Part shown: positions 58,533 to 59,376 of the stretch, piece after piece | Layout: the number at the start of each line of letters is the position of its first letter | Numbering within the stretch: position 1 is the stretch's first letter | Sequence record: OZ035772.1 | Length of the DNA: 64,000 nt | Strand: one strand, 5' to 3' | Source: Felixounavirus LF82P3 | The notes under the pieces: model-generated | The model's input: only the letters and a program-made list of their open reading frames with translations | Told to the model about the DNA's origin: nothing | Database searches by the model: none | Made by a program: the position numbers and the translations under genes

Positions 58533-58606
58533 CAGAAGACCAATTACAGCAAACTTAATCTTATTCATCTGAAGGTAAATCGGACAAAGAAGAGATTTGG
58601 TCTGGT
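58533..58606 (+). ncRNA. Hairpin-bracketed element E1 (candidate structured small RNA)
   Basis: 5' CAGAAGACC...TACAGCAAA and 3' ...GGTCTGG form closing stem; family of 4. Confidence 0.35.
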
Positions 58607-58616
58607 CATTAAGAAT

Positions 58617-58693
58617 TGCGGGTATAGAGAAAGGGCGTCTCACATGTCTCATTAGCATGGTATCGGCAGGTTCGACTCCTGCACCCGCCTCCA
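58617..58693 (+). tRNA. tRNA-Met (anticodon CAT; elongator vs initiator vs Ile-lysidine unresolved)
   Basis: Anticodon arm CATGT-CTCATTA-GCATG, T-arm GCAGG-TTCGACT-CCTGC, CCA; position 1-72 mismatched. Confidence 0.65.
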
Positions 58694-58698
58694 AATTT

Positions 58699-58768
58699 AC
58701 AGAAGACCGTTTACAGCAAAATTGAATGAAATTTTTAGCGGAAAAAATTGAAAGATACGGTCTGGTAA
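58699..58768 (+). ncRNA. Hairpin-bracketed element E2
   Basis: ACAGAAGACCGTTTACAGCAAA ... ACGGTCTGGTAAT. Confidence 0.35.
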
Positions 58769-58778
58769 TACTAAACAT

Positions 58779-58855
58779 GGTTAGGAAGCACATAAGGTAT
58801 GTGCGGTCGCCTGTTAAGCGAATGGCACAGGGTTCGAATCCCTGACTAACCGCCA
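58779..58855 (+). tRNA. tRNA-Asn (anticodon GTT)
   Basis: D-arm GCAC/GTGC, anticodon loop CTGTTAA, T-arm CAGGG-TTCGAAT-CCCTG, CCA. Confidence 0.75.
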
Positions 58856-58924
58856 AATTTAGGAGAGAAGCGATTGCTCACCGATTTGTAAGGTGCAAGT
58901 CCTTAGCCTGAATAGAAATTAAAT

Positions 58925-59012
58925 GTGTCGTTATCCCGTAGATGGTAGCGGTGGGGACTGTAAATCCCTTGTCATTGAGACTCGGTAGGTTCGACTCCTA
59001 CACGGCACACCA
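58925..59012 (+). tRNA. tRNA-Tyr (anticodon GTA), long variable arm
   Basis: Acceptor GTGTCGT/ACGGCAC, anticodon arm GGGGA-CTGTAAA-TCCCT, ~15-nt variable arm, A73, CCA. Confidence 0.75.
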
Positions 59013-59017
59013 ATAAA

Positions 59018-59095
59018 GGTTATGTAGTTTAATTTGGTTAAAATACTCCCCTGTCACGGGAGATGATGAGGGTTCAAATCCCTTCGTAACCGCCA
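59018..59095 (+). tRNA. tRNA-Asp (anticodon GTC)
   Basis: Anticodon arm CTCCC-CTGTCAC-GGGAG, T-arm GAGGG-TTCAAAT-CCCTT, CCA. Confidence 0.75.
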
Positions 59096-59155
59096 ATTTT
59101 GAGAGGGCTATTTAGCCCCTCCCTTAAAGGGTTCTTACGAGTATCCTTTAAAGGA

Positions 59156-59232
59156 GCAGAAGACCAAATACAGCAAGAACGTATGAAATTTCAAGCCAAT
59201 TTAATTTTGAAAATTTAAAACTTGGTCTGGCT
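59156..59232 (+). ncRNA. Hairpin-bracketed element E3
   Basis: GCAGAAGACCAAATACAGCAAGAAC ... CTTGGTCTGGCTC. Confidence 0.35.
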
Positions 59233-59242
59233 CAACAAATTT

Positions 59243-59376
59243 ACAGAAGACCGTTTACAGCAAAACTTAAACAATCTATTTCTCCGGTAAAGAAAAGGCG
59301 AAGGTTCGATTCCTTCACTCGGCAGAGGTCGAGTTGGTGTAATGGTAGCACTTAAGATGATAAACAACGGTCTGGT
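59243..59376 (+). ncRNA. Element E4: hairpin-bracketed RNA with an internal circularly permuted tRNA-like module (Y RNA / YrlA-like candidate)
   Basis: E2-type ends enclose T-arm GAAGG-TTCGATT-CCTTC, acceptor-3' ACTCGGC, loop AGAG, acceptor-5' GTCGAGT (7/7 pairing incl. one G-U), D-arm GTG-TAATGGTAG-CAC; no anticodon arm, no CCA. Confidence 0.45.

Follow-up and report, generated by a model that had tools for sequence, protein, structure and literature searches.

Four candidate small RNA genes among the tRNA genes downstream of a Ro60-like protein gene in Felixounavirus LF82P3

Introduction

What are the four short elements with complementary ends that interrupt the tRNA gene cluster of Felixounavirus LF82P3 (OZ035772.1)? 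An earlier note on this DNA proposed stable small RNAs, processing signals, or mobile mini-elements. Here, the elements, designated E1 to E4, were examined within the whole 64-kb stretch of DNA analyzed (the window), in related phages, and in environmental phage loci.

Results

Four elements with a common closure lie among the tRNA genes

The 5' signature CAGAAGACCNNWTACAGCAA was found with at most two mismatches four times in the 64-kb window, at 58533, 58700, 59157, and 59244, and always on the + strand. Shuffled sequence yielded a mean of 0.01 occurrences, with none of 100 shuffles reaching four, and the family of four hairpin-bracketed elements claimed in the earlier note is therefore real. 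The 3' terminus of all four copies is nnGGTCTGG. The inner ends pair as claimed, AGACCnn with nnGGTCT, and the two variable positions covary, being AA/TT in E1 and E3 and GT/AC in E2 and E4. The pairing is in fact longer, as four further flanking bases on each side are also complementary (UGAC/GUCA, UUAC/GUAA, and GAGC/GCUC) and form an outer helix. The full elements therefore have the following limits:

58530-58608, + strand: E1, short type (fold, descriptor match, covariance model R1, Rfam Dicty_Class_I_RNA); outer helix 58530-58533/58605-58608, unpaired AGA 58534-58536, inner helix 58537-58543/58597-58603, UUACAGCAA 58544-58552, unpaired G 58604
58697-58768, + strand: E2, short type (fold, descriptor match, model R1); outer helix 58697-58700/58765-58768, inner helix 58704-58710/58757-58763, UUACAGCAA 58711-58719, unpaired G 58764
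59154-59233, + strand: E3, short type (fold, descriptor match, model R1); outer helix 59154-59157/59230-59233, inner helix 59161-59167/59222-59228, AUACAGCAA 59168-59176, unpaired G 59229
59241-59378, + strand: E4, long YrlA-like type (folds); outer helix 59241-59244/59375-59378, inner helix 59248-59254/59367-59373, UUACAGCAA 59255-59263, unpaired G 59374

All four fold into an identical two-helix closure. The closing module that they have in common comprises a 7-bp helix of covarying sequence whose second pair is a fixed G:C, a single-stranded UUACAGCAA immediately 3' of the 5' strand, and an unpaired G that follows the 3' strand, to which the short outer helix is added; (U/A)UACAGCAA is present in each of the four. 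In SUSP2, the outer helix of E2 is changed from UUAC/GUAA to UUGC/GCAA. E1 to E3 are approximately 75 to 80 nt in length and have fast-evolving interiors, and E4 is 138 nt long.

The surrounding transcription unit has the order Pro, Glu / E1 / Met / E2 / Asn, Tyr, Asp / E3, E4 / Lys, Met, Ile, and its features are as follows:

58364-59759, + strand: tRNA genes around the elements (ARAGORN, Rfam tRNA matches)
58217-58245, + strand: sigma-70-like promoter match, TTGACA-17-TAATAT (consensus match only)
58308-58337, + strand: sigma-70-like promoter match, TTGACA-18-TAAAGT (consensus match only)

The ends of E1 and E2 are 4 to 18 nt away from sites of tRNA 5' and 3' processing. Judged by their consensus, the two promoters ahead of tRNA-Pro are presumed to start a transcript carrying E1 to E4 and nine tRNAs; the next sigma-70-like site is at 59775-59803. 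The sole + strand terminator-like match (58209-58240) overlaps the first promoter, and none was found in the remainder of the unit, past the second promoter, for which reason a reading of the elements as terminators was rejected. Small structured stable RNAs that are co-transcribed with phage tRNAs and freed by tRNA processing have a precedent in species 1 and 2 of phage T4, for which we know of no protein partner.

The gene upstream encodes a protein with the fold of Ro60

E1 to E4 begin 332 to 1043 nt past the stop codon of a gene that shares their strand and whose likeness to Ro60 the earlier note had missed:

56783-58198, + strand: Ro60-like protein gene, 471 aa; DUF2828 helical domain and vWA domain whose DxSxS metal site is intact

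The only Pfam families returned for the 471-aa protein were DUF7788 (4.7e-44), DUF2828 (9.8e-30), and, weakly, VWA_2; TROVE was not matched. The protein also matched PHROG 850, "RNA-binding protein," at 6e-184. A phmmer search against PDB sequences returned nothing, and the likeness to Ro60 emerged only from comparison of folds. The AlphaFold2 model (pLDDT 88.6, pTM 0.88) had as its best 12 PDB fold matches exclusively Ro60, Rsr, or TROVE structures, matched over the full length with E-values of 5e-8 to 3e-6 and TM scores of at most 0.66. The Foldseek matches to 1YVR, 2I91, 2NVO, 9KOP, and 9L5Y spanned approximately 510 to 550 columns. The DxSxS (MIDAS) residues D279, S281, and S283 are invariant. 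As modeled, the protein is thus a Ro60 ring of helical repeats with a C-terminal vWA domain by its fold, although not by TROVE sequence.

The gene is orthologous to Bas63 gp130 (bas63_0130), found in the same position, and to Felix O1 ORF42, annotated "RNA-binding protein"; the mycobacteriophage homologs carry the annotation "Ro-like RNA binding protein." The Bas63 gene-essentiality study reported gp130 to be Ro60-like and to counter the host defense Ppl; the guess was also made there that Y RNAs are hidden among the "tRNAs" downstream of gp130. All four elements are present downstream of gp130 in Bas63. More widely, hundreds of phages have DUF2828 proteins whose annotation is just "RNA-binding" or "vWFA"; the family is also present in giant viruses of protists and has been reported, as uncharacterized proteins, in plants.

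The closing module is conserved and accompanies DUF2828 genes

The terminal helix was compared over 44 element termini from 13 phages, and 99% of the cells of the 7-bp helix were paired, a value that is partly obtained by construction because the 3' strands were picked by their complementarity. All seven pairs change on both sides, with 116 compensatory cells, and the covariation score was 0.97, compared to 0.20 for shuffled termini and 0.08 to 0.16 for slid registers; the weight for covariation rests with the shuffled, opposite-strand, and independent-model controls. An independent alignment, A3, showed the same pairing and compensatory changes. Within UUACAGCAA, a C, G, C, and A are invariant in the 44 elements, and the other two A's, the second G:C pair, and the unpaired G are each at least 90% conserved. 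Between genera the termini are 86 to 100% identical, and the interiors of E1 are 48 to 63% identical. Homologous elements, which the earlier note had suggested seeking in related phage tRNA clusters, are found there, and their order among the same tRNAs is kept in the three Ounavirinae genera compared, Felixounavirus, Suspvirus, and Mooglevirus. That note had also reckoned with an absence of covariation or conservation in relatives; instead, the helix covaries and the motif is invariant.

The module adjoins a DUF2828 gene in all annotated phages examined, whose hosts range from Mycobacterium to Listeria: Klebsiella phage KP13-16, Mycobacterium phage Rumpelstiltskin, Vibrio phage ValKK3, Aeromonas phage LAh_6, Cronobacter phage S13, Campylobacter phage CPX, and Listeria phage AG20. 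Neither Rumpelstiltskin nor ValKK3 has an annotated tRNA within 3 kb. A fixed descriptor of the module was then applied to an environmental sample of 74 phage DUF2828 loci (627 kb), and gave 90 matches on the gene strand in 57 of the loci, compared to 3 on the opposite strand and a mean of 2.9 in shuffles; the other 17 loci were without a match. Matches within 500 nt of the gene numbered 73 of the 90, with 49 downstream and 24 upstream, and none was inside it. The same descriptor applied to the 64-kb window returned E1 to E4 and nothing else.

A covariance model, R1, was built from 37 training elements with all Ounavirinae left out; one of these (L089), whose 3' end was misaligned by MAFFT, was retained. 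The three best matches of R1 in the window were E2 (35.0 bits, E 1.2e-5), E1 (32.2 bits, 5.3e-5), and E3 (25.5 bits, 0.0019). In some phages the module occurs inside tRNA-shaped genes as circular permutations, and only four such copies were credited, none of them in the window. When permuted copies were sought with a loose hairpin-plus-motif pattern, the two strands gave 7 versus 6 matches, which is background.

E4 contains a permuted tRNA mimic

The interior of E4 has a tRNA-like part of approximately 70 nt, in which the arms follow one another in permuted order:

59279-59295, + strand: V-like hairpin
59300-59316, + strand: T arm (GAAGG UUCGAUU CCUUC)
59317-59334, + strand: closed acceptor-like hairpin
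59335-59336, + strand: U-G
59337-59351, + strand: D arm (loop AAUGGUA, containing GG)

A partial Rfam tRNA match (59267-59317, 22 bits) falls within E4. The acceptor-like hairpin of the counterparts in SUSP2, pEC-M719, Sf14, and Moogle is changed in sequence with its pairing kept, and thus covaries between genera. E4 and its counterparts keep the order of YrlA, that is, T arm, abutting acceptor-like hairpin, U8-N9, and D arm, with hairpin sequences wholly different between genera. Two elements of the same layout were matched by the Rfam YrlA model itself, that of KP13-16 with 39.7 bits and one from environmental locus L055 with 43.5 bits (E-values 3e-7 and 2e-6, respectively).

The earlier note had described E4 as an E2-type element with a tRNA-like insertion of approximately 50 nt. 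It recognized the tRNA-like piece and missed that this is a permuted mimic of the YrlA type. The ends of E2 and E4 are identical, but their interiors are just 26% identical, which means that E4 is not, in a literal sense, E2 with something inserted.

Relation to known small RNAs

A close parallel is that of YrlA and YrlB, the RNAs associated with Rsr (Ro60) (RF02553; Chen et al. 2014, PMC4201824). There, too, the RNA genes adjoin a gene of Ro60 type and share its strand, and several RNAs with stem-closed ends are encoded per locus, one being long with a tRNA mimic and the others short. E4 resembles YrlA in having V, T arm, closed acceptor-like hairpin, and D arm in that order, and E1 to E3 are without a tRNA-like domain, as is YrlB. 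The YUAY element after the 5' stem strand of these RNAs has as its phage counterpart UUAC. The systems differ in that the phage protein is DUF2828 rather than TROVE by sequence, and in that E1 to E4 are interleaved with tRNAs in one operon, with some relatives being permuted and inside tRNA-shaped genes. The proposed Rsr site near the 5' end of YrlA and YrlB, GNCGAAN0-1G (PMC4201824), is absent from E1 to E4, whose 5' ends read (N)CAGAAGACCnnUUACAGCAA with no CGAA; the helix, UUACAGCAA, and unpaired G stand in its place. The RF02553 model (gathering threshold 69 bits) had no match in 58526-59400 even at E <=10, and E4 is therefore not assignable to that family. At permissive thresholds, neither YrlA nor Y_RNA was matched in the window, and no window element attains any Rfam threshold. 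The screen of Chen et al. 2014 (PMC4201824) covered only genomes annotated for TROVE, and the phage 471-aa protein is not TROVE.

Another phage system is that of Thermus phage phiLo, in which Ro60 occurs with Yrl1 and Yrl2 and binds both RNAs and the host PNPase in vitro (PMC12135203). This locus likewise has a phage protein of Ro60 fold and two adjacent small RNAs with a 5'-3' stem, and the phiLo Ro60 structures, 9KOP and 9L5Y, are among the best fold matches of the window protein. In contrast, the phiLo protein is a recognized Ro60 homolog, its RNAs were chosen by a CGAA motif, and no tRNA operon setting is described.

The module itself resembles the Class I RNAs, which are reported to be confined to the dictyostelid social amoebae (RF01414; Kjellin et al. 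2021, PMC7919456). Both have sizes of approximately 50 to 70 nt, many paralogs, a terminal stem of about 6 to 7 bp with free compensating sequence, a 5' G that is fixed in the sequences and would pair with the C of a 3' CUG(U), and a variable interior with an A-rich segment ahead of the 3' strand. The 11-nt motif beside the 5' stem strand of Class I RNAs is ccUUACAGCAA, in which U3, C6, C9, A10, and A11 are near-universal (PMC7919456); C6, C9, A10, and A11 correspond to the invariant or near-invariant C, C, A, and A of phage UUACAGCAA. The RF01414 model aligns to phage elements end to end (positions 1-56), with scores of 19.7 bits for E1, 15.9 for E2, and 28.8 to 30.7 for the best phage elements, all below the threshold of 41.5. 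As read from the sequences, the end pattern is AAG...CUGG in the window, continuing into the outer helix, AG...CUGU or CUGA in most other phages, and (A)AG...CUGU in Class I RNAs. Apart from the extra outer helix and CUGG end of the window copies, the phage elements differ in having a helix-motif spacing shorter by 1 nt and in lacking the DUSE promoter, their operon having sigma-70-like promoter matches. No link of Class I RNAs to any Ro-like protein has been reported.

We tentatively suggest, while rating it at somewhat below an even chance, that a single RNA class embraces both the phage elements and the Class I RNAs of dictyostelids, and that this class is the cognate ligand of Ro60-like proteins of the DUF2828 type. 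On this reading, a second Ro-like lineage would have Class I RNAs as its "Y RNAs," acquired, protein included, perhaps by gene transfer. [quoted passage not shown]

Discussion

The above considerations make it probable that E1 to E4 are four small non-coding RNA genes whose products are RNA partners of the upstream Ro60-like protein, forming a phage Ro60/Y-RNA particle. The comparative evidence, in the form of covarying ends, an invariant single-stranded motif, strand specificity, and linkage to a Ro60-like gene in phages that are not related, favors stable small RNAs over the other options raised in the earlier note.

Instead of being free stable RNAs, the elements might act in cis as sites on precursor or messenger RNA to which the Ro60-like protein binds, either for autoregulation or to control tRNA maturation. 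The 24 environmental elements lying upstream of the protein gene fit such a role, as do the overlap of the element's 3' strand with the start codon in ValKK3 and the location of the window elements in a presumed polycistronic tRNA transcript. However, most copies lie downstream of the gene, an operator needs neither multiple tandem copies with differing interiors nor elaborate tRNA mimics, and both Class I RNAs and YrlA, which the models place nearest, are free RNAs of high abundance. We consider this reading unlikely.

Quite unlikely, too, is that the elements serve purely as structural spacers, directing the cleavage of precursor tRNA by RNase III, E, or P and having no later function. They do occupy the gaps between tRNAs almost exactly, and hairpins are also present in other spacers of the operon. 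A cleavage hairpin, however, leaves the invariant single-stranded 9-mer and the fixed unpaired G unexplained, and the occurrence of the module in Rumpelstiltskin and ValKK3, away from any annotated tRNA, argues against processing signals as the main role and leaves them a side role at most. Moreover, the hosts include actinobacteria, firmicutes, and proteobacteria, whose processing enzymes differ, with the DUF2828 gene as the constant neighbor.

A spread of miniature mobile elements, bearing terminal inverted repeats, through the tRNA cluster would account for the short inverted termini, the four copies, and the identical ends of E2 and E4. Against this, the order is fixed in three genera, the copies are on one strand only with none in the other 62 kb of the window, and no flanking direct repeats were noticed in an unsystematic look. 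The termini also covary so as to keep RNA pairing, including G-U pairs valid solely in the + strand transcript (Moogle AGGCCAA/UUGGUCU and AGACUGU/ACGGUCU; Sf14 AGGCCGU/ACGGUCU), and a mobile origin is very improbable. That the E3/E4 region encodes small minus-strand proteins, as an 85-aa open reading frame (59215-59472) and the Bas63 annotation (bas63_0137 and bas63_0138) might suggest, is hardly credible, as E4 lengths of 127, 123, 116, 121, and 118 nt in five phages of three genera mean that the indels are not multiples of three, conservation tracks the RNA helices and the + strand motif, and other records have no annotation there.

If E1 to E4 are indeed partners of the Ro60-like protein, they would be transcribed together with the first nine tRNAs, starting at the promoters just past the protein gene, and the enzymes trimming the adjacent tRNAs may excise them, leaving RNAs closed by their terminal helices. 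The conserved module, consisting of the 7-bp helix of free sequence with its fixed second G:C, single-stranded UUACAGCAA, an A-rich run preceding the 3' strand, and the unpaired G after that strand, would be the putative docking site of the protein, and the variable interiors may give each RNA a separate role. That of E4, mimicking the elbow and acceptor of tRNA as does YrlA, could recruit tRNA-handling enzymes or an exoribonuclease. The particle would act on RNA, probably tRNA, during infection, in keeping with the report that Bas63 gp130 counters Ppl.

Should this be correct, the guess of the Bas63 study would become four defined genes and a candidate binding module, the latter open to mutation in a phage whose protein already has a phenotype, that with Ppl. 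The large DUF2828 family would gain a predicted RNA ligand and a simple search rule. The ligand would in addition be tied to Class I RNAs, an orphan class for twenty years, suggesting a testable partner and mechanism for them. Finally, Ro-type particles would stand at the head of phage tRNA arrays, which would point to tRNA surveillance or repair against host defenses that target tRNA.

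Four spacers of the tRNA cluster share a closed terminal module

The region matches Felixounavirus LF82P3 at 100% identity, and Felix O1 and many E. coli and Salmonella relatives at 95-99%. According to ARAGORN, 26 tRNA genes lie on the + strand beginning at 58364, and four hairpin-bracketed spacers, E1-E4, sit among the first nine:

56783-58198 (+), gene for a 471-aa protein, upstream of the spacers
58530-58608 (+), E1
58697-58768 (+), E2
59154-59233 (+), E3
59241-59378 (+), E4

The 5' signature CAGAAGACCNNWTACAGCAA was found in four copies, all on the + strand (at 58533, 58700, 59157, and 59244), where 0.01 were expected. 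Every copy ended in nnGGTCTGG, and repeat finding retrieved the same four, in agreement with the earlier note, which had described a family with common ends. These ends had also been proposed to pair, and RNA folding bore this out with a closure common to E1-E4, consisting of a 4-bp outer helix, an inner helix, an unpaired AGA on the 5' side, and one unpaired G on the 3' side. The flanking bases forming the outer helix vary by copy yet are complementary (UGAC/GUCA, UUAC/GUAA, GAGC/GCUC), and the inner helix of 7-8 bp (AGACCnn/nnGGUCU) covaries at nn. The folding energies of E1-E4 were unremarkable alone (z -1.3 to -1.7), and the case therefore rests on comparison across genomes.

Between genera, the termini were 86-100% identical, as against 48-63% for E1 interiors and 67-76% for E2 interiors. 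Such conserved termini and drifting interiors fit a docking module held constant around an interior that can vary. E4 had been taken for an E2-type element with a tRNA-like insertion; the two do have the same termini, yet the identity of their interiors is just 26%.

The upstream gene encodes a Ro60-like protein

The ORF at 56783-58198 stops 166 nt ahead of tRNA-Pro, and its orthologue is annotated as an 'RNA-binding protein' in Felix O1 and a 'vWFA protein' in phage adrianh. Pfam assigned DUF2828 and DUF7788 (a vWA domain) to the 471-aa protein; TROVE was not assigned. The PHROGs label for the family is 'RNA-binding protein', and mycobacteriophage homologues of approximately 33% identity are labeled 'Ro-like RNA binding protein'. 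The AlphaFold2 model was confident (pLDDT 88.6; 42 homologues), and its best 12 PDB fold matches were all Ro60/Rsr/TROVE proteins with full-length alignments, among them Thermus phage phiLo Ro60. The fold was also found in giant viruses of protists. Small Y RNAs are the working partners of Ro60 proteins, and in bacterial loci the Ro60 gene adjoins those for YrlA, which is long and has a tRNA-like domain, and for the shorter YrlB.

The module recurs beside DUF2828 genes of other phages

The search for homologous elements suggested in the earlier note was productive, with all four present in Felix O1, adrianh, SUSP2, pEC-M719, Sf14, Moogle, and Bas63. In the Klebsiella phage KP13-16, of a different subfamily, the protein is 52% identical and a tRNA array again lies downstream of the DUF2828 gene. 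Five elements with the pattern AGAAGnn-UUACAGCAA ... nnCUUCU-G occur in the intervening 680 nt, and two of these match Rfam YrlA, one at 39.7 bits (E 3e-7) and the other at 25.8 bits. The signature adjoined the DUF2828 gene in all six other annotated phages examined: Mycobacterium phage Rumpelstiltskin (three elements, of which the second has T, acceptor-like, and D arms), Aeromonas LAh_6 (at least nine elements), Vibrio ValKK3, Cronobacter S13, Campylobacter CPX, and Listeria AG20. In general form, the signature opens with one strand of a 7-bp helix, whose sequence is arbitrary, and (U/A/C)(U/A)ACAGCAA; after a variable interior come an A-rich run, the second helix strand, and a G.

In a gapless helix alignment of 44 termini from 13 phages, 99% of helix cells were paired and 7/7 pairs had changed on both sides, with a covariation score of 0.97, as against 0.20 when shuffled and no more than 0.16 when the register was slid. 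Positions that were invariant or nearly so comprised the second base pair (G:C), C-A-G-C-A-A of the motif, and the unpaired G. Because the 3' strands had been picked by complementarity, three independent controls were added. A fixed descriptor was run on 74 environmental DUF2828 loci from IMG/VR (627 kb; 39-48% protein identity), giving 90 matches on the gene strand versus three on the opposite strand (shuffle mean 2.9); 73 of the 90 lay within 500 nt of the gene, none lay inside it, and 57 of the 74 loci had at least one. On both strands of the 64-kb window the fixed descriptor returned exactly E1-E4 and nothing further. Finally, a covariance model from 37 elements of non-Ounavirinae phages had as its best three matches in the window E2 (35.0 bits, E 1.2e-5), E1 (32.2 bits, E 5.3e-5), and E3 (25.5 bits, E 0.0019); the next full-length match (E 0.3) had broken pairs.

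Several other features were observed at these loci, where tRNA arrays often adjoin the DUF2828 gene. A very short element of ValKK3 (L009:2965-3006, ~42 nt) overlaps the DUF2828 start codon with its 3' helix strand, which hints at autoregulation. Near the gene in Listeria AG20 (L013:1428-1979, 5713-7020) were a ROOL RNA match scoring 90.1 bits, slightly short of threshold, as well as a gene for an RtcB-type 'tRNA splicing ligase', and an environmental phage (L086:7696-8187) has a tmRNA (85.5 bits) near its DUF2828 gene.

E4 resembles YrlA, and the module resembles Dictyostelium Class I RNAs

The E4 interior comprises, in order, a small hairpin, a T arm (GAAGG-UUCGAUU-CCUUC), a 7-bp hairpin, U-G, and a D arm with an AAUGGUA loop. 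The acceptor-like 7-bp hairpin (ACUCGGC-AGAG-GUCGAGU) directly abuts the canonical T arm, and in Suspvirus, Mooglevirus, and an unclassified relative it differs in sequence with pairing kept (ACACGU/GCGUGU, ACCCUUC/GAAGGGU). This layout is that of a tRNA with its acceptor stem closed and the terminal helix in place of the anticodon stem, the arrangement described for YrlA. The Rfam YrlA model gave no match to E4, which, unlike YrlA, is missing the proposed Rsr motif GNCGAAN0-1G.

Genes 111-121 nt long and shaped like tRNAs, which score 41-57 bits with the Rfam tRNA model, were seen in KP13-16 (L007:5945-6055), LAh_6 (L010:494-610), and Cronobacter S13 (L011:4895-5015 and 5025-5137). An insert of ~40-55 nt around the anticodon arm holds the helix and UUACAGCA module, closed by a 3-4-nt loop. 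Relative to the E4 type, these genes are circularly permuted, their ends falling at the acceptor stem; the window has none.

The only Rfam family repeatedly matching the elements was RF01414, Dictyostelium Class I RNA. All matches were on the + strand, full length (model positions 1-56), and below the 41.5-bit threshold: E1 (19.7 bits) and E2 (15.9) in the window, two in KP13-16 (24.4 and 23.6), seven inside 1 kb in LAh_6 (29.6 to 19.1), and others in environmental loci (30.7, 28.9, 28.8, and 25.4). The consensus GaUcuC-CUUACAGCAA ... GagAuC-UG agrees with the phage module save for one nucleotide in the helix-to-motif spacing. Class I RNAs are ~60 nt long, with a 6-bp terminal stem kept in structure but not sequence, a 3' CUGU whose C pairs with a fixed 5' G, and an 11-nt motif by the 5' strand in which U3, C6, C9, A10, and A11 are near-universal, the remainder being variable; they were not found outside Dictyostelia (Kjellin et al., PMC7919456). 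Four of these five positions (C6, C9, A10, A11) correspond to the invariant or near-invariant C, C, A, and A of the phage motif; the counterpart of U3, the opening base of UUACAGCAA, is more variable.

Our literature search found Class I RNAs and Y RNAs nowhere mentioned together. DUF2828 proteins have been reported in plants and mimivirus-like sequences, and the uncharacterised protein DDB_G0281243 was pulled down with a Class I RNA. We hypothesize, on RNA similarity alone, that the phage elements are linked to Class I RNAs. By Rfam's criteria, E1-E4 could not be assigned to either YrlA or Class I; they combine the architecture of the former with the candidate binding-module signature of the latter.

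Transcription and other structured spacers

Two promoter-like sites directly follow the protein gene, the next being at 59775, and no + strand terminator-like site was found in between, so that E1-E4 and tRNAs Pro through Ile look like a single transcription unit. Since the ends of E1 and E2 lie 4-18 nt from the adjoining tRNAs, RNase P and 3' trimming enzymes would free them.

The spacer from E4 to tRNA-Lys (59377-59524, 148 nt) has a multi-branched fold with a 24-bp closing stem (-47.9 kcal/mol, z -6.4) and a 22-nt inverted repeat, and is without the UUACAGCAA module; it may be a further structured RNA or an RNase III site. Also structured are 58856-58924, with a T-arm-like remnant GGUGCAAGUCC (z -2.6), and 59096-59156, two hairpins just ahead of E3 (z -3.0). 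A strong promoter-like site (59775-59803) precedes a 249-nt spacer (59702-60008 region) with weak Rfam matches to permuted tmRNA (31.8 bits, E 0.0011) and tmRNA (14.3 bits), and additional long spacers lie at 60086-60323 and 60414-60668. Felix O1 has an HNH endonuclease gene between tRNA-Lys and tRNA-Ile (L001:1996-2481) where the window has tRNA-Met, which shows that homing endonucleases move within this cluster.

Candidate Y RNAs of a phage Ro60-like protein

E1-E4 are best read as a putative Y-RNA-like gene family whose partner would be the Ro60-like DUF2828 protein. Among the possibilities raised in the earlier note, stable small RNAs are favored by the comparative evidence in this form, and we consider pure processing hairpins and miniature mobile elements less likely, as are cis-acting protein-binding sites. 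Small minus-strand ORFs are called or annotated over E3/E4 (59215-59472 in the window; bas63_0137 and bas63_0138 in Bas63), but E4 lengths in five phages of three genera differ by non-multiples of three, and these less likely candidates are probably not genes.

By analogy with Ro60 and Y RNAs, the 471-aa protein would dock on the conserved module, and the interiors of E1-E4 would choose the partners. In bacteria, Ro60 is tethered to PNPase by Y RNA, and phiLo Ro60 assembles in vitro with its RNAs and the host PNPase (PMC12135203). In Bas63, too, all four elements lie downstream of the orthologue, gp130, which keeps its position and is reported to look like Ro60 and to counteract the Ppl defence. 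The authors of that work raised the possibility that certain annotated tRNAs are Y RNAs; our comparison points instead to unannotated spacers as the candidates. In Salmonella, damaged tRNAs trigger a response of the rsr-yrlBA-rtcBA operon. The putative Y-RNA-like family could plausibly take part in the surveillance or repair of tRNAs during infection.
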